A stretch of 37,252 nt of DNA from a virus (IMGVR_UViG_2563366981_000002:1-37252); one strand, 5' to 3'; numbered from the stretch's first letter, positions 1,078 through 13,325 are shown. The notes: generated from the letters alone by a model not told the origin. Translations and numbers: made by a program.

Positions 1078-1106
1078 ATTTTTACTGTATGTATAACCAG
1101 TGTCAA
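1078..1106 (-). promoter_or_regulatory. putative int promoter with operator-like dyad
   Basis: Minus strand reads TTGACA, 16-nt spacer, TAAAAA; the spacer contains CTG-N10-CAG (plus strand TACTGTATGTATAACCAGTG, 1083-1102), resembling a LexA box. Confidence 0.35.
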
Positions 1107-6184: not shown

Positions 6185-7038
6185 GCACCATCCTGAAATG
6201 GGCGGGTAATAAAACCGCCGTTATGTCCGAACTGAAAAAATACCTTCCTGCTGGCCCGCGACTGGTTGAACCTTTCGCGGGTTCCTGTGCAGTGATGATG
6301 GAGACGGATTACCCCAGCTATCTGGTAGCGGATATTAATCCTGATTTAATCAACCTCTATAAAAAGGTTGCTGCTGATTGTGAGGTGTTTATATCTCGCG
6401 CCAGAATTTTGTTTGAGGAAGCAAACAGTGAGCTGGCTTATTACAACATAAGGCAGGAGTTTAATTACTCAACTGAAATTACTGATTTCATGAAATCGGT
6501 ATATTTCCTGTATCTCAATCGTCATGGTTACCGTGGGTTATGTCGCTATAACAAGAGCGGGCATTTCAACATTCCCTACGGTAATTATAAAAAACCGTAT
6601 TTCCCTGAAAAAGAAATTCGCGCATTTGCAGAGAAAGCCCAGCGGGCAACGTTTATCTGCGCCAGCTTTGATGAAACGCTGGCGATGTTGAAGGCGGGGG
6701 ATGTGGTGTATTGCGATCCGCCGTATGACGGTACGTTTTCCGGCTATCACACTGATGGCTTCACTGAGGATGACCAGTATCACCTGGCATCCGTTCTTGA
6801 ACATCGATCATCTGAAGGTCATCCGGTCATTGTTTCTAACAGTGACACATCCCTGATTCGTTCGCTGTATCGCAATTTCACTCACCACTACATCAAGGCA
6901 AAACGCAGCATCGGCGTGTCGGCTGGCGAGAGTAAATCTGCAACAGAAATCATTGCTGTTTCCGGGGCGCGCTGCTGGGTGGGATTTGATCCTTCGCGTG
7001 GCGTGGATAGTTCTGCTGTGTACGAGGTGCGTGTATGA
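6181..7038 (+). CDS. dam: DNA adenine methyltransferase (Dam-like)
   Basis: [16 protein letters not shown] and DPPY motifs; ATGA overlap with the upstream gene. Confidence 0.85.
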
Positions 7039-9449
7039 GTCATGACGATATGAGCAACTCTAGCGGCTTTAACGAGGCCGCAGCAGCATTTTCATGGAAC
7101 GGCCCGAAAAAGGCCATTAACCCTTATCTGGACCCGGCGGAAGTTGCGCCGGAGTCTGCACTTTCAAACATGATCACTCTGTACGCTGCCGATAACGAGC
7201 AGGAACAGCTGCGCCGCGATGCACTGAGTGAGCAGGTCTGGGAGCGTTATTTCTTTAATGAATCCCGTGATCCTGTCCAGCGCGAAATGGAGCAGGATAA
7301 GCTCATTAGCCGCGCAAAGCTTGCGCATGAGCAGCAGCGTTTTAACCCGGACATGGTCATTCTGGCAGATGTCAGCGCCCAGCCTACCCACATCAGCAAG
7401 CCGCTGATGCAACGTATCGAATACTTCAGTAGCCTGGGCAGGCCAAAGGCTTATTCCCGCTATTTGCGTGAGACGATTAAGCCATGTCTGGAGCGACTGG
7501 ATTGTGTACGCGACAGTCAGCTATCCGCTTCTTTCCGTTTTATGGCAAGCCATCAAGGGCTTGAGGGCCTGCTGATCCTGCCTGAAATGAGTCAGGATCA
7601 GGTAAAACGCCTGTCCACCCTGGTAGCAGCGCATATGAGCATGTGTCTTGAGGTCGCTTGTGGTGATTTGTATGCCACCGATGACGTTAAGCCAGAAGAA
7701 ATCCGCAAGGCATGGGAAAAGGTGGCAGCGGAAACCCTGCGTCTGGATGTTATCCCGCCTGCGTTTGAGAAACTTCGTCGGAAAAGAAACCGCCGCAAAC
7801 CAGTGCCCTATGAACTCATACCGGGTTCGATGGCACGTATGCTTTGCGCCGACTGGTGGTATCGAAAATTGTGGAAGATGCGTTGCGAATGGCGGGAAGA
7901 GCAGTTGCGTGCTGTCTGTCTGGTCAGCAAAAAAGCATCTCCCTATGTCAGCTATGAAGCAGTGACGCATAAACGTGAGCAGCGCCGCAAGTCGCTGGAG
8001 TTTTTCCGTTCTCATGAATTGGTGAACGAAGACGGAGACACGCTGGATATGGAAGATGTGGTAAACGCCAGCAGCAGCAACCCGGCACATCGCCGAAATG
8101 AGATGATGGCTTGCGTTAAAGGTCTGGAGCTTATCGCGGAAATGCGTGGTGACTGCGCCGTTTTCTACACTATCACCTGTCCGTCACGTTTCCATTCCAC
8201 GCTAAATAACGGCAGGCCCAACCCGACCTGGACAAATACGACGGTAAGACAAAGCAGTGATTATCTGGTCGGCATGTTTGCTGCATTTCGTAAGGCGATG
8301 CACAAAGCCGGATTGCGCTGGTATGGCGTGCGGGTGGCTGAGCCGCATCATGACGGTACAGTTCACTGGCACCTGTTGTGTTTTATGCGCAAAAAAGATC
8401 GCCGCACCATTACTGCTTTGTTGCGTAAGTTTGCCATTCGTGAAGACCGCGAGGAGCTGGGTAATAACACTGGGCCGCGCTTTAAGTCTGAGCTGATTAA
8501 TCCGCGCAAAGGAACGCCGACAAGCTACATCGCGAAATATATCAGTAAGAACATTGACGGGCGTGGTCTGGCTGGCGAGATCAGCAAGGAAACGGGTAAA
8601 TCTCTGCGTGATAACGCTGAATACGTGAATGCCTGGGCGTCTCTGCATCGTGTTCAGCAATTCCGCTTCTTTGGCATTCCGGGGCGTCAGGCTTACCGTG
8701 AACTGCGATTGCTGGCTGGTCAGGCGGCAAGGCAACAGGGGGACAAAAAAGCAGGTGCGCCGGTACTGGATAACCCGCGCCTTGATGCAATCCTGGCTGC
8801 TGCTGATGCTGGTTGTTTTGCCACCTACATCATGAAGCAGGGCGGCGTACTGGTTCCCCGCAAATATCACCTCATCAGAACTGCTTATGAAATCAACGAA
8901 GAACCGACCGCATATGGCGATCACGGTATTCGTATTTATGGCATCTGGTCACCCATTGCAGAGGGCAAGATCTGCACTCATGCGGTGAAGTGGAAAATGG
9001 TTCGTAAGGCCGTTGACGTTCAGGAGGCGGCAGCCGACCAGGGCGCTTGCGCCCCTTGGACTCGTGGCAATAACTGTCCCCTTGCTGAAAATTTGAACCA
9101 ACAAGGGAAAGACAAATCAGCTGATGGGGATACCAGAACGGATATCACCCGCATGGATGACAAGGAGTTGCACGATTACCTGCACAGTATGAGCAAAAAA
9201 GAGCGCCGGGAACTGGCAGCAAGATTACGCCTGGTTAAACCGAAACGGCGTAAAGACTACAAACAGCGAATTACAGAGTATCAGCGTCAGCAGCTCGTCT
9301 ATGAGCTGAAGTCCAGAGGATTTGATGGCAGCGAGAAAGAGGTCGATTTGCTCCTTCGCGGTGGCAGTATTCCGTCAGGAGCAGGCCTGCGTATCTTCTA
9401 TCGGAACCAGCGTTTGCAGGAAGATGATAAGTGGCGGAACCTGTATTAA
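7035..9449 (+). CDS. A: replication initiation protein A (rolling-circle nickase)
   Basis: 804-aa ORF with HUH-like motif ([10 protein letters not shown]); conserved position after early genes. Confidence 0.85.
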
Positions 9450-9541
9450 TCACGCGGGTTAACAATCCGTGCTCTTAATAATACCAGGCATATCAGGCTG
9501 ATGAACGTAAAAAAACGTTTTACATCAGTAAGATTATTATA

Positions 9542-9561
9542 TACTGTAATTATAAACAGTG
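9542..9561. promoter_or_regulatory. LexA (SOS) box
   Basis: TACTGTAATTATAAACAGTG = CTGT-N8-ACAG; a weaker second dyad follows at about 9560-9577; lies upstream of ATG 9603. Confidence 0.6.
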
Positions 9562-9602
9562 GTTATGTATACAGTATTTCTTGTGGTGTCATAGGAGGAA
9601 AG

Positions 9603-9791
9603 ATGCAGGACTATTTTTTGGAGTCTTTGAAGCTCCAGCGCATTGATTTTTTTCTTAAGCTTGTAGCGGCTAGTGAGTGTAGTGATGAAGAGAAGGGGCT
9701 GGCTTTGCAGTGGGTTTCTGAACTAACAGATGAACTCATGGCAAAAATCAGAACCCACGAATACAACCGCTCAATGGATGTCATCAGTTGA
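9603..9791 (+). CDS. small SOS-regulated protein (possible Tum-like antirepressor; inference)
   Basis: 62-aa ORF with AGGAGG RBS directly downstream of the LexA box; the longer 9501 start is rejected because the box lies inside it. Confidence 0.5.
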   Translation: MQDYFLESLKLQRIDFFLKLVAASECSDEEKGLALQWVSELTDELMAKIRTHEYNRSMDVIS

Positions 9792-9801
9792 GGTGACTTT
9801 T

Positions 9802-10035
9802 ATGCGCATTGAAATAATGATCGATAAAGAGCAGAAGATTAGCCAGTCTACCCTGGACGCCCTTGAATCCGAGCTTTACCGTAATCTGCGCCCCCTGTAT
9901 CCCAAAACGGTAATTCGTATCCGCAAAGGTAGCTCTAACGGTGTGGAACTGACCGGACTGCAACTGGACGAAGAAAGGAAGCAAGTGATGAAAATTATGC
10001 AGAAGGTGTGGGAAGACGACAGCTGGCTGCATTAA
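9802..10035 (+). CDS. DinI-like protein
   Basis: 77-aa protein (MRIEIMIDKEQKISQSTLDALESELYRNL...WEDDSWLH) with DinI-like length and motifs; GAGGTG RBS. Confidence 0.8.
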   Translation: MRIEIMIDKEQKISQSTLDALESELYRNLRPLYPKTVIRIRKGSSNGVELTGLQLDEERKQVMKIMQKVWEDDSWLH

Positions 10036-10157
10036 GAAACGTTGCTGGCGTCTGAACTTGCTTCTGGCGTCAGCAAGGTTGAACAACGAGCTGTGCGAGG
10101 CGTTAGTTGATATAGTATCAATATATAAAAGGTTTCTCGAAGTTTTAAGGTAAGGTT

Positions 10158-10877
10158 ATGACAACTATTAACAAGCATGGGTTATCTAGAACAATTCCTG
10201 AACCTGTAAAACTGGAGGTAAGGCAGCGCTGTGGCTTTGGTTGCGTTGTTTGTGCTTCTCCCATTGTTGAGTATGAGCATGTAATTCCCACATACGCTGA
10301 TGCAAAGGAGCACTCTCCAAATGCAATAGCACTACTTTGTCCTACGTGCCATGCGAAAGTAACGAAACGTCTTTACTCTAAAGAGAAAATAATTAAAGCA
10401 ATGGAATCTCCTGCAGCCTTACAAAAAGGGAATGTGGCCGATATATTGGACTTTTCTGATAGGCATCCAACAATAATATTTGGTGGTGCGACGTTTGAAT
10501 CCTGTACTGTACCAATAATGTTTCAAAATGAGCCATTGTTAACCATTGAAAAAGAAAATAATGCTTTTCTTATTTCGGGTAAATTTTACGATAGTCAAGG
10601 TATTGTTAATCTTGAATTAATTAAGAATGAGTGGGTTTGTAGTGCAAGGCATTGGGATGTTCAGGTTGTTGGTCCTAGAATAACTATTATAGAAAAAAGG
10701 AAAGGTCCTCGTTTAATTATTAAAGTTGATGCGCCTGAAAGATTGATTGTGGAAAGATTAGATATGTTGGTTAAGGGGACTCGGATTGTAGGAGACGAAC
10801 ACAAGCTAAGAGTCGGTCCACATCAATTTCACAACTGTGGAGTTTCAAATTGCAATATTGGTTTCTGCTTTGGCTAA
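10158..10877 (+). CDS. HNH-endonuclease-domain protein with unknown C-terminal domain
   Basis: N-terminal CGFGCVVC...EYEHVIP...N...CPTCH (CxxC, EH, N, CxxCH HNH signature); markedly AT-rich; adjacent to cos-like motif. Confidence 0.75.
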   Translation: MTTINKHGLSRTIPEPVKLEVRQRCGFGCVVCASPIVEYEHVIPTYADAKEHSPNAIALLCPTCHAKVTKRLYSKEKIIKAMESPAALQKGNVADILDFSDRHPTIIFGGATFESCTVPIMFQNEPLLTIEKENNAFLISGKFYDSQGIVNLELIKNEWVCSARHWDVQVVGPRITIIEKRKGPRLIIKVDAPERLIVERLDMLVKGTRIVGDEHKLRVGPHQFHNCGVSNCNIGFCFG

Positions 10878-10990
10878 CTGGAGGTTGGAAAAAGACCATT
10901 TCCTGTAAGCTGAGTATTTCGTACATTTTTGCCAACGCATGTCTATGTCGCATGAAATCGCATGATCGTTTGAGGATCGTTTTTGCTGAT

Positions 10991-11018
10991 GCCCGCCAGA
11001 GCTGGCGGGCTTTTGCTT
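10991..11018 (+). terminator. rho-independent terminator after the HNH gene
   Basis: GCCCGCCAG / CTGGCGGGC stem followed by TTTTGCTT. Confidence 0.5.
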
Positions 11019-11059
11019 ATGTCATGCAGGTGCATGAAAACCACTACACAAAGCGGGCA

Positions 11060-11078
11060 GGCGTGGCGGGGATACGAG
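11060..11078. other. cos-like motif (putative cohesive-end site)
   Basis: GGCGTGGCGGGGATACGAG followed by GCGCGC; resembles the recalled P2/186 cohesive-end sequence; correct position and orientation relative to the portal gene. Confidence 0.4.
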
Positions 11079-11166
11079 CGCGCGCAATAGGGTTATGTAC
11101 AATAAATTTTTGACGATCTTCGAGTGTTATTAGCTTGAGGCTGTCAGGGAAAATGAATACAATAAG

Positions 11167-11198
11167 AAGCGCCTAGCAGAATGTTACTAGGCGCTTCG
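11167..11198. terminator. perfect hairpin between converging transcription units
   Basis: GAAGCGCCTAG, 10-nt loop, CTAGGCGCTTC; T-rich flank on the minus strand. Confidence 0.35.
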
Positions 11199-11230
11199 AA
11201 TATATAACCTGTATGACTTTCTTAACCTAC

Positions 11231-11338
11231 TTATCTTTTTGATTTCTTCTTCGTATCATCGTGATCGAATACTTGGCGGGTAGGCGGCTTGCTGGGTGGT
11301 GGCGGCGGCGGTAAATTAGATTTCTCATTTTTGCTCAT
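11231..11338 (-). CDS. polyproline micro-protein C (35 aa)
   Basis: MSKNEKSNLPPPPPPSKPPTRQVFDHDDTKKKSKR; AGGAAAA RBS; ATG overlaps the stop of micro-ORF B. Confidence 0.4.
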   Translation of the reverse strand: MSKNEKSNLPPPPPPSKPPTRQVFDHDDTKKKSKR

Positions 11339-11462
11339 CTTTATTTTTCCTATTTTTTGGATCATTGCCATAGCTTTCTCTAACTAACCGAGTGATTGGC
11401 GGTTTAGGTGGTGGTGGTGGTGGTGGTGCTTCATTTTTTTTAGGATTTTTGTGTTCGGTCAT
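11325..11462 (-). CDS. polyproline micro-protein B (45 aa)
   Basis: MTEHKNPKKNEAPPPPPPPKPPITRLVRESYGNDPKNRKNKDEQK; AAGGA RBS 8 nt upstream; paralogous to A and C. Confidence 0.45.
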   Translation of the reverse strand: MTEHKNPKKNEAPPPPPPPKPPITRLVRESYGNDPKNRKNKDEQK

Positions 11463-11577
11463 TTTTATCGTCCTTTCTGTCTCTTCGTAGTTGCCTTGCT
11501 TTTGAATCATCTTCAATAACGATCCTTCTTGCGGGTGGAGTAGGCTGAGGAGGTGGTGGCGGTAACGGTTTGGTCAT
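11440..11577 (-). CDS. polyproline micro-protein A (45 aa)
   Basis: MTKPLPPPPPQPTPPARRIVIEDDSKARQLRRDRKDDKNDRTQKS; AGGAG RBS 7 nt upstream; TAATG overlap with the membrane protein gene. Confidence 0.45.
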   Translation of the reverse strand: MTKPLPPPPPQPTPPARRIVIEDDSKARQLRRDRKDDKNDRTQKS

Positions 11578-12227
11578 TAAGTTCTCCTGACATTTTCAAT
11601 AGGTATTATCAAATAGTTAGGGGCGTTATTTTTCCGCGGTGATGCTGCATCTAAATCAGCTAAAAGAAATATGACTACTGCTGCGATAATTGGAATCCAT
11701 GACCAGACAAGATACTTTGTTGACTCAAATAGTTTACTGGAACGTTCTTCATTGATATTACTGTTCCAGCTAGCACACTCTCTGATTTCTTGATGAATAA
11801 ACTCCCAAAGTTTATTATCAGGGTTATAACTTTCATCGTATGTAAGTCCATTGTCATCGCAATATTTTTTATATTTCACTTCGTAACTAATCAGATCTAT
11901 GTGATAATCATGCAATGCTTTAGGTGCAGGGCAATACTTAAATTCATTTCCCCATATGACTTGTTTCAACAGAATTGATGATACAAGAACTAAGCCAAAT
12001 GAAATTGCGGTACATAAAAATACTAGGCAAGCTAGCCTTGGGTGGGATTCATAAGATGTGTTTTTGGCGAGATAAGTGAGTATAGTTGCGGTAATGACAA
12101 CTAATCCGAATTCGGCTTGAGCGCGAGTATGTATCTTGTCTTTATTCTCAATTTCTGAGAAATAAAGTTTTTCGTAAAATTCTAATGCTTTATCCTTTTT
12201 CATTTTTAGATTCAGTGTGATGTCCAT
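11577..12227 (-). CDS. accessory membrane protein (three predicted TM helices)
   Basis: 216-aa ORF, AT-rich, hydrophobic segments at about residues 40-55, 65-87 and 175-195; lies between the cos-like motif and the portal gene. Confidence 0.7.
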   Translation of the reverse strand: MDITLNLKMKKDKALEFYEKLYFSEIENKDKIHTRAQAEFGLVVITATILTYLAKNTSYESHPRLACLVFLCTAISFGLVLVSSILLKQVIWGNEFKYCPAPKALHDYHIDLISYEVKYKKYCDDNGLTYDESYNPDNKLWEFIHQEIRECASWNSNINEERSSKLFESTKYLVWSWIPIIAAVVIFLLADLDAASPRKNNAPNYLIIPIENVRRT

Positions 12228-12248
12228 GTATCAAACATATCACGATAA

Positions 12249-12278
12249 CAAAAAAAGAAAAGCCGCAATTCTGCGGCT
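12249..12278 (-). terminator. rho-independent terminator downstream of the portal gene
   Basis: AGCCGCA / TGCGGCT stem, then TTTTCTTTTTTTG on the minus strand. Confidence 0.5.
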
Positions 12279-12296
12279 GTTGGGAAGCTAATCTAG

Positions 12297-13325
12297 CTAT
12301 AATTCGTAATTTGTGAACCCTATCGCGTTTTTATCCAGCCATTTATTAAGCTCCTCAAAGCGTCTCTGAAGCGGAATAAGTTCATTACGAACGAATACGC
12401 GGCTGGCCTTCTCCACATCCCCAAATCCCCCAACATTATTAGGCATAATCCCCATCATTTGCGGTGGCACACGATGCGCCGCCATCATGTCATCCCGGCT
12501 CACGTTCTTGATGTTTAGAAACTCATCCTTCGCCGCGACTTCTGACAGAGGAATGATCTGAAGCCCATCCTTTTTGCCGTTAGGCGAGTACATAAACAGG
12601 TTGCGGAAGTTACCCGGTCCTTTGGCGCTTTTCATCGCATTGCGGAGGTTGTTCACATCCTCCTGGTTCTGCGCGGCATCGGTCATGTACATGATGAAGC
12701 CTGCATGACTACCGTTAATGTAATACTTCCGGCGGAACAGCGTGGCGGACTCGTTGAGCAAAGCGGATGGGATGGCAGAAAGATAGCCGGGCAGGCCGTA
12801 GATCTCCTGATTAATATCCGGTTCCATCAGATGAAAAATGCTGCCTTTCGTGAACTGATACGGCTGGGTTGTCATACCGTATTGCACAAACCAGTAGGTA
12901 TCCAGGTCTAACCCGCGTCGGGTATATTTTGCCAGAGCAGGCTCAAGGGCGATAACTTCACCGAAGCGGTTCGTGCGTTTCTCCAGATAAGCGTTACCAA
13001 ATACCAGATAGTCCTGCACAAAACGTGAAAAAGCCTGCTGGCTGAGCAGCGGGTGAGGGATGTAGGTACTGGTCAGTATGTTGCATTTCACCGCAATTGG
13101 TGAACTGTGATGCACGGCAGCGCGGAAGGTGCGCGCCAGTCCGTCAAAGCTTACTGGCGGCTCATACCAGTGATCTGTCTGTACGCATTCCACATAGTCC
13201 AGCAGTTCTCGGCGGTCCAGAACAGGAACGGGATCGCCGAAGCTGAATGCTTCGGCTGTAGTTTGACTTTTAAGCTGGATCTGTTTCGTCGCCGAAGCGC
13301 GGTTCTTCTTACTCTTTCCCATCAA
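12297..13325 (-). CDS. Q: portal protein
   Basis: 342-aa ORF, leftward, cos-proximal, ATGA-coupled to terminase; P2 Q-like position. Confidence 0.9.
   Translation of the reverse strand: MMGKSKKNRASATKQIQLKSQTTAEAFSFGDPVPVLDRRELLDYVECVQTDHWYEPPVSFDGLARTFRAAVHHSSPIAVKCNILTSTYIPHPLLSQQAFSRFVQDYLVFGNAYLEKRTNRFGEVIALEPALAKYTRRGLDLDTYWFVQYGMTTQPYQFTKGSIFHLMEPDINQEIYGLPGYLSAIPSALLNESATLFRRKYYINGSHAGFIMYMTDAAQNQEDVNNLRNAMKSAKGPGNFRNLFMYSPNGKKDGLQIIPLSEVAAKDEFLNIKNVSRDDMMAAHRVPPQMMGIMPNNVGGFGDVEKASRVFVRNELIPLQRRFEELNKWLDKNAIGFTNYEL

Follow-up and report, generated by a model that had tools for sequence, protein, structure and literature searches.

A LexA-boxed tumA–dinI unit as the very probable SOS induction operon, in split tum form, of a Fels-2/186-type P2-like prophage

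The prophage-inducing antirepressor Tum has been described in several P2-like phages, in both a fused and a divided form. A note in the phage 186 record ascribes binding and inactivation of the CI repressor to Tum, and CI inactivation is known biochemically for 186 Tum only (PMC3121763). Lemire et al. described Tum as resembling a fusion of an antirepressor with DinI, and noted that tum is split by a stop codon in Fels-2 and PSP3, with the upstream PSP3 gene being the one with antirepressor activity (PMC3121763). The GenBank record of PSP3 accordingly describes tumA as 'similar to 5' end 186 tum; UV induction of prophage' and tumB as 'similar to dinI and 3' end of 186 tum'. Genetic evidence comes from DuoHS, a prophage of E. 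coli HS, for which Ortiz de Ora et al. constructed delta-tum, an in-frame deletion joining the start codon to the stop codon; this deletion and lexA(Ind-) each abolished mitomycin C-induced lysis and virion formation (PMC12055606). Operators that bind two LexA dimers have been described for colicin genes, where they prevent untimely lethal expression (PMC2994835). The locus studied here is very probably this known SOS induction operon of a Fels-2/186-type P2-like prophage in its 'split tum' form. As such it is an already known and ordinary feature, which has been experimentally validated in a near-identical relative.

The window, i.e. the whole stretch of viral DNA that was analysed (IMGVR_UViG_2563366981_000002:1-37252; 37,252 nucleotides), represents a P2-like prophage of 186/Fels-2 type, and matches to the prophage region occur in about one in four complete E. 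coli genomes. Its minus strand carries an integrase gene (1-1053), two cargo genes (1143-2799) and cI, and its plus strand carries apl/cox-like and cII genes, a dam methylase gene and replication gene A (7035-9449), which stands directly before the operon (Table 1). A species-level genome scan for relatives of the 62-aa ORF returned 33 loci from Escherichia, Citrobacter, Enterobacter, Klebsiella, Serratia, Pantoea, Erwinia, Tatumella and other genera. An earlier note, made from the window sequence alone, had placed the module after the replication gene, and this placement was found to be kept throughout the 33 loci, with the ortholog starting about 150-400 nt after the replication gene and, in one locus (L026), 1.15 kb after it.

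Table 1. Positions of the features discussed in the text, numbered from the first nucleotide of the window
Feature	Position	Strand	Basis or remark
-35 hexamer TTTACA of the tumA promoter (p95 equivalent)	9519-9524	+	Inferred; conserved spacing to box 1
Alternative -10 hexamer TATACT	9540-9545	+	Spacer would be 15 nt
Probable -10 hexamer TACTGT, 17-nt spacer	9542-9547	+	Analogy with 186 p95, conserved spacing in 33 loci; lies inside box 1
LexA box 1, TACTGTAATTATAAACAGTG	9542-9561	.	Exact core, matrix score 22.2, conserved in relatives
LexA box 2 (weaker), CAGTGGTTATGTATACAGTA	9557-9576	.	Matrix score 15.6, offset conserved
tumA RBS AGGAGGA	9593-9599	+	Read from sequence; AGGAGG conserved in relatives
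tumA-like gene, 62 aa	9603-9791	+	Profile homology to the N-terminal domain of 186 Tum
dinI-like RBS GAGGTG	9790-9795	+	Read from sequence; overlaps the tumA stop codon
dinI-like gene (tumB equivalent), 77 aa	9802-10035	+	PF06183 and homology to the Tum C-terminus
Stable RNA hairpin after dinI, no U-tract	10038-10080	+	RNA fold of 10030-10160
Presumed target: 186-type CI, 313 aa	2802-3743	-	Two PF07022 and one PF16452

The same note had read a near-consensus LexA box and a weaker adjacent dyad upstream of the 62-aa ORF, and scoring of the LexA motif bore out both. Box 1 agrees with the 20-nt consensus of the gammaproteobacterial LexA box at 16 of its 20 positions, and it holds the only exact CTGT-N8-ACAG core in the 37 kb window (9544-9559). 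This single core is weak evidence when taken alone, because 0.53 such cores are expected in the window by chance, and at least one was present in 40 of 100 shuffles. A 20-nt weight matrix, which was built from generally known E. coli SOS boxes, scored box 1 at 22.2, compared with shuffled-window maxima of 11.3 in the median and 16.8 at most. Box 2, which has GTGG where the consensus has CTGT, was the third best site in the window at 15.6, and the next site down, the best of the background, scored 8.6.

Conservation between species is a stronger argument for the LexA boxes than the core count. A box was kept directly upstream of the orthologous ORF in 32 of the 33 loci, which come from different species, and the second box was found at the same 15-nt offset in 21 of them, which supports the weaker dyad as well. 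Elsewhere in these 16-kb loci the sites above threshold came to six in all, three of which were boxes in int promoters. The one locus without the box (L036), from Siccibacter turicensis, has a tumA ORF truncated to 20 codons and has lost its LexA box. The orthologous genes of Fels-2, 186 and PSP3 also have a LexA box upstream, and the phage 186 record annotates the equivalent site as the LexA site of p95. The two 16-nt cores of the window (9544-9559 and 9559-9574) overlap by one base, which is, at the level of sequence, the arrangement of a colicin-type double operator. On the same level of evidence, the 62-aa gene would be expressed from a LexA-repressed promoter.

The promoter itself was located by comparison. 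In relatives, TTTACA and the CTGT of box 1 are held at a fixed distance of about 19 nt, which points to TACTGT as the -10 hexamer with a 17-nt spacer; the annotated layout of p95 in phage 186 is TTCACA-18-TACTGT, compared with TTTACA-17-TACTGT in the window. A consensus promoter scan called no promoter for tumA, and we attribute this to TACTGT matching TATAAT at three positions only. The tight spacing of stop codon, RBS and start codon at the tumA–dinI junction was conserved in relatives. A hairpin at 9780-9797, which extends across the tumA stop codon and the RBS of dinI and scanned as terminator-like, was considered as a translational-coupling or attenuator element and was set aside, as it is not conserved in relatives. 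Downstream of dinI the intrinsic terminator scan called no terminator, and the stable hairpin found by folding at that position could possibly act as a partial terminator or a transcript stabiliser. An Rfam scan of 9000-12400 returned nothing at E values up to 0.1.

The 62-aa ORF was found where the earlier note had described it, behind a strong RBS, and its proposed role as a Tum-type antirepressor is now supported by the homology search that the note had called for and by the deletion of its DuoHS ortholog. Pairwise BLASTP gave no alignment between the 62-aa protein and 186 Tum, and the homology between TumA and Tum therefore rests on profiles. A search of 1.8 billion representative proteins yielded a compact family of 66 clusters, in which most proteins stand alone and are about 55-75 residues long, and a profile of its diverse members matched Tum residues 6-48 with 34.5 bits (E 5e-8 at Z=1e5), compared with 7.8 bits at most for shuffled Tum N-termini in 2000 trials. 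Aligned together with 186-type Tum proteins, the family shows no gap in the core, and M1, E7, R13, C26, A34 and E40 are nearly invariant. The PHROG profiles cross-link the two proteins independently, since the window protein matched PHROGs 698, 8554 and 1993 and 186 Tum matched 1993, 8554 and 698. PSP3 TumA, which scored 4 bits against the window-family profile, is linked via PHROG 1993 only, its single PHROG match. Many E. coli and Klebsiella P2-like phages encode a protein 100 % identical to the TumA of the window.

No Pfam or PADLOC family matched the 62-aa protein, and its labels in RefSeq, PHROGs and UniRef are 'hypothetical', 'unknown function' or 'levan regulatory protein'. An AlphaFold2 model predicts a two-helix hairpin with a mean pLDDT of 86. 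A search of PDB sequences with the family profile gave nothing significant, and Foldseek of the model against the PDB returned generic helical hairpins only (best E 0.86). A 96-aa extended frame from the ATG at 9501 was rejected as the gene, as the promoter and both LexA boxes would fall inside it, family members in distant taxa begin with the Met of the 62-aa frame (the nearly invariant M1) and RefSeq gives 62 aa. Many distant members of the family (P0267, P0272, P0275, P0292, P0297, P0301 and others) carry a glycine-rich tail, ...NPQxGGxxxGGxxLQ, that is absent from the window protein.

The DuoHS genetics can be assigned to this ORF with precision. The deletion primers (PMC12055606, supplementary file 3) contain GTGGTGTCATAGGAGGAAAGATG and TGAGGTGACTTTTATGCGCATTG, which have exact matches in the window at 9583-9605, where the last three bases are the ATG of the ORF, and at 9789-9811, where the first three are its TGA. 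The protein deleted as 'tum' in that study (PMC12055606) is ECHS_RS04495 of E. coli HS, which is identical to the window protein at 61 of 62 residues, and the loss of induction upon its deletion supports the antirepressor reading of the 62-aa ORF. That the window ORF would likewise be required for induction is an extrapolation from this ortholog.

The second gene of the module is DinI-like, as the earlier note had it. It starts ten bases after the 62-codon ORF, and its product matched PF06183 over the whole profile (positions 1-63 of 63, E 6.6e-23) and the E. coli DinI structure 1GHH (E 2.7e-6); it ends in ...KVWEDDSWLH, in keeping with the acidic C-terminal helix of the DinI family. It is also 41 % identical to Tum residues 71-145 (E 3e-24). 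With the TumA profile on the N-terminus of Tum and DinI on its C-terminal half, Tum is a fusion of both genes and the window has the unfused form. This accounts for the length mismatch that had troubled the earlier comparison, as Tum (146 aa) comprises a TumA-like domain and a DinI domain. In a close set of 186-type loci, 79 of 80 have the fused Tum, and no fusion to DinI was identified in the TumA subfamily of the window.

In L020 and L037 dinI is interrupted, which, like the truncated tumA of L036, is a sign of decay in these prophages. Among the 33 loci dinI was present in 20 and absent from 13. This absence is consistent with an accessory role for DinI, and judging by its family the product may bind or modulate RecA filaments. 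In Gifsy phages, non-polar dinI deletions had no significant effect on induction (PMC3121763), in agreement with dinI being dispensable in evolution.

Taken together, these observations suggest the following course of events. In the lysogen, two LexA dimers on the two overlapping boxes would sit over the -10 hexamer, the start of transcription and the first transcribed stretch, and hold the operon tightly off. Upon DNA damage, RecA would become active, LexA would cleave itself and the tumA promoter would fire. The 62-residue, two-helix TumA would then bind the non-cleavable CI and free the lytic promoter, leading to lytic growth; we infer the direct contact between TumA and CI from phage 186 biochemistry. 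The DinI-family product of the same message would act on RecA filaments as an accessory and tune the SOS signal. By analogy with colicin operators, the second box would provide tight, low-leak repression of a gene whose product kills the lysogen.

The presumed target in the window has no peptidase S24 autocleavage domain in Pfam, as expected of the CI of a Tum-type phage. It carries two PF07022 helix-turn-helix domains in tandem, at about residues 20-86 and 131-197, followed by one CI C-terminal domain; the CI of most relatives has about 190-210 aa and one helix-turn-helix domain. Tandem-domain CI proteins were also found in Klebsiella phage 4LV2017 (98.7 % identical) and in ST11-OXA245phi3.1 (52 %). 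By homology to 186 Tum and CI, TumA probably acts on this protein, although its sensitivity is an extrapolation, given 49 % identity to the CI of DuoHS and an extra DNA-binding domain. The antirepressor is far more conserved than its presumed target, as phages such as DuoHS, Fels-2, Cartapus, the Kp48xx series and vB_EcoM-813R9 share a TumA of 98-100 % identity and have CI proteins with an identity of only 38-52 %.

We compared the CI proteins of 27 loci with window-type TumA to those of 57 loci with 186-type Tum. None of the 30 CI clusters formed at ≥80 % identity was common to both Tum types. For the N-terminal DNA-binding domain of CI, median identity was 59 % among window-type loci and 36 % from one type to the other. 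For the C-terminal domain it was 32 % within the window type, where TumA is 71-100 % identical. One exception to the pairing was seen in Pantoea stewartii (L027), which has a window-type TumA and a 186-like CI. This co-variation, confounded as it is by shared ancestry, hints weakly that TumA contacts the N-terminal DNA-binding domain of CI. The contact could instead be with the C-terminal domain, in which case TumA would inactivate CI by blocking its oligomerisation and not by masking the DNA-binding domain. Cooperative repression by 186 CI depends on multimerisation mediated by the C-terminal domain, and the helical hairpin of the TumA model could plausibly dock on either CI domain. However, the C-terminal domain is poorly conserved among loci with a highly similar TumA, and it is the better conserved N-terminal domain that tracks TumA type, a correlation open to the same confounding by ancestry. 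We therefore regard action through the C-terminal domain as unlikely.

A second alternative accepts the SOS-controlled tumA–dinI unit as genuine, and holds that TumA is inactive on the 313-aa CI of its own prophage. The prophage would then be non-inducible or poorly inducible, and the module would act in trans on co-resident relatives or be a leftover of recombination. Identical or near-identical TumA proteins do occur with CI proteins that share only 38-52 % identity, tandem-domain CI is rare among relatives, and the window is mosaic, with a left arm (int to cI) nearest to Klebsiella phage 4LV2017 and a tum region nearest to E. coli phages. However, tandem-domain CI and a 100 % identical TumA recur together in Klebsiella phages deposited as complete genomes (4LV2017 and the Kp48xx series), the N-terminal domains of CI are more alike within the window TumA type than between types, and the LexA boxes and tumA ORF are intact. 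An inactive pairing of TumA and CI in the window thus seems quite improbable.

It is hardly credible that the 62-aa ORF is a leader or an unrelated small protein, irrelevant to induction, within a host-benefit 'moron' whose DinI damps or tunes RecA and the SOS response: the database labels of 'hypothetical protein' or 'levan regulatory protein', the want of a Pfam family and the 'unknown function' of all matching PHROGs would fit such a view, but it is the ORF that consistently goes with the LexA box (13 of 33 loci have no DinI), its profile homology to the N-terminal domain of Tum is strong, and the DuoHS experiment already contradicts it, as removal of the ORF alone, with dinI intact, abolishes induction (PMC12055606).

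The top-scoring LexA box of the window lies elsewhere, directly upstream of the integrase gene (1083-1102 on the minus strand, TACTGTATGTATAACCAGTG, score 23.4), in the spacer of a near-consensus promoter, TTGACA-17-AAAAAT (1078-1106, minus strand). The int promoter and its box are identical in DuoHS of E. coli HS and in locus L006, and in Klebsiella sp. R390 (L038) the arrangement is kept with diverged sequence (TTGACC, CACTGTTCAAACATACAGTT, TAAATT). Relatives with other int alleles are without a LexA box in the int promoter. This suggests direct SOS control of int in the lineage of the window.

The cargo between int and cI, on the minus strand, encodes proteins of 201 aa and 349 aa, which had a weak match to PHROG 10040 only and no Pfam or PADLOC family; it is common to Klebsiella phage 4LV2017 and some E. 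coli prophages. Further cargo lies between dinI and the portal gene (10158-12227), and comprises a 239-aa HNH-domain protein (PF01844, PHROG 6544) and, on the minus strand, a predicted membrane protein of 216 aa and a tandem set of three small ORFs (11231-11577), each with a polyproline run, PPPPPP. PADLOC returned no matches in this cargo. Relatives carry DUF4145, reverse transcriptase, nucleotidyltransferase and other genes at the same position.

Returning to TumA as the antirepressor of the resident CI, a broader proposal can be put forward only tentatively, as possible rather than probable. One near-invariant TumA (71-100 % identical across Enterobacterales genera) would serve many heteroimmune CI proteins (30-50 % identical), the tandem-domain CI included, by recognising a surface that is conserved in the N-terminal domain. 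Co-resident relatives would then be cross-induced, as in Gifsy phages, whenever any one Fels-2-type prophage is derepressed by SOS, and int would be under direct LexA control as well. If true, the capacity for excision and the loss of repression would be triggered in parallel in the lineage of the window.

The main value of the present analysis is one of annotation, as tumA decides the induction of very common E. coli, Klebsiella and Salmonella prophages by DNA-damaging antibiotics. The firm link to Tum, provided by the profile match and the DuoHS deletion, lets prophage inducibility be predicted from sequence. The residual interest is for specialists, and concerns one antirepressor facing divergent CI proteins, the colicin-like operator and the LexA box of int itself.

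Among known systems, the dinI-gfoA/gftA operons of Gifsy phages likewise combine a LexA-repressed small antirepressor with a DinI homolog and act on an uncleaved repressor (PMC3121763). There dinI comes first, in the opposite gene order, and the phages are lambdoid with an unrelated repressor family; the likeness is one of organisation, and no relationship of sequence is claimed. The operators of colicin N and colicin R are 83-85 % identical to the 47-bp operator of the window, and likewise have two 16-nt cores sharing one base. They control a different gene from different promoter hexamers, with a product that is, like TumA, lethal if mistimed, and the resemblance may reflect the constraints of accommodating two LexA sites rather than common descent.

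The SOS operon of phage 186 (p95, LexA site, tum, orf97) shares with the window its place directly after gene A, a LexA box over the -10 hexamer, the same -35/-10 layout and a CI of the non-self-cleaving type. The N-terminal 48 or so residues of Tum correspond to the 62-aa ORF and residues 71-145 to the DinI gene. The two differ in that 186 makes a single fused polypeptide whereas the window has two genes, and in that 186 has one near-perfect LexA box (score 27.4) whereas the window has two overlapping boxes. The gene downstream of the operon in the window is the HNH-like one of 239 aa, which is unrelated to 186 orf97; it was considered as an orf97 homolog and rejected for want of homology, and belongs to the variable cargo.

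The two-gene architecture of the window is that of PSP3 tumA/tumB and of Fels-2 STM2728/STM2726.1. PSP3 tumB is a close DinI homolog, whereas PSP3 TumA belongs to the 186-like subfamily (PHROG 1993) and PSP3 has a single LexA box. Fels-2 STM2728, described in its record as a 'hypothetical protein' only, is 98 % identical to the TumA of the window and lies behind the same double LexA box. DuoHS differs from the window in its cargo genes and in its CI, a protein of 188 aa with a single helix-turn-helix domain that aligns with the C-terminal two-thirds of the 313-aa CI at 49 % identity. In the operon itself it shares with the window an identical RBS, start context and stop/dinI junction together with the double LexA box, and it has the same LexA-boxed int promoter.
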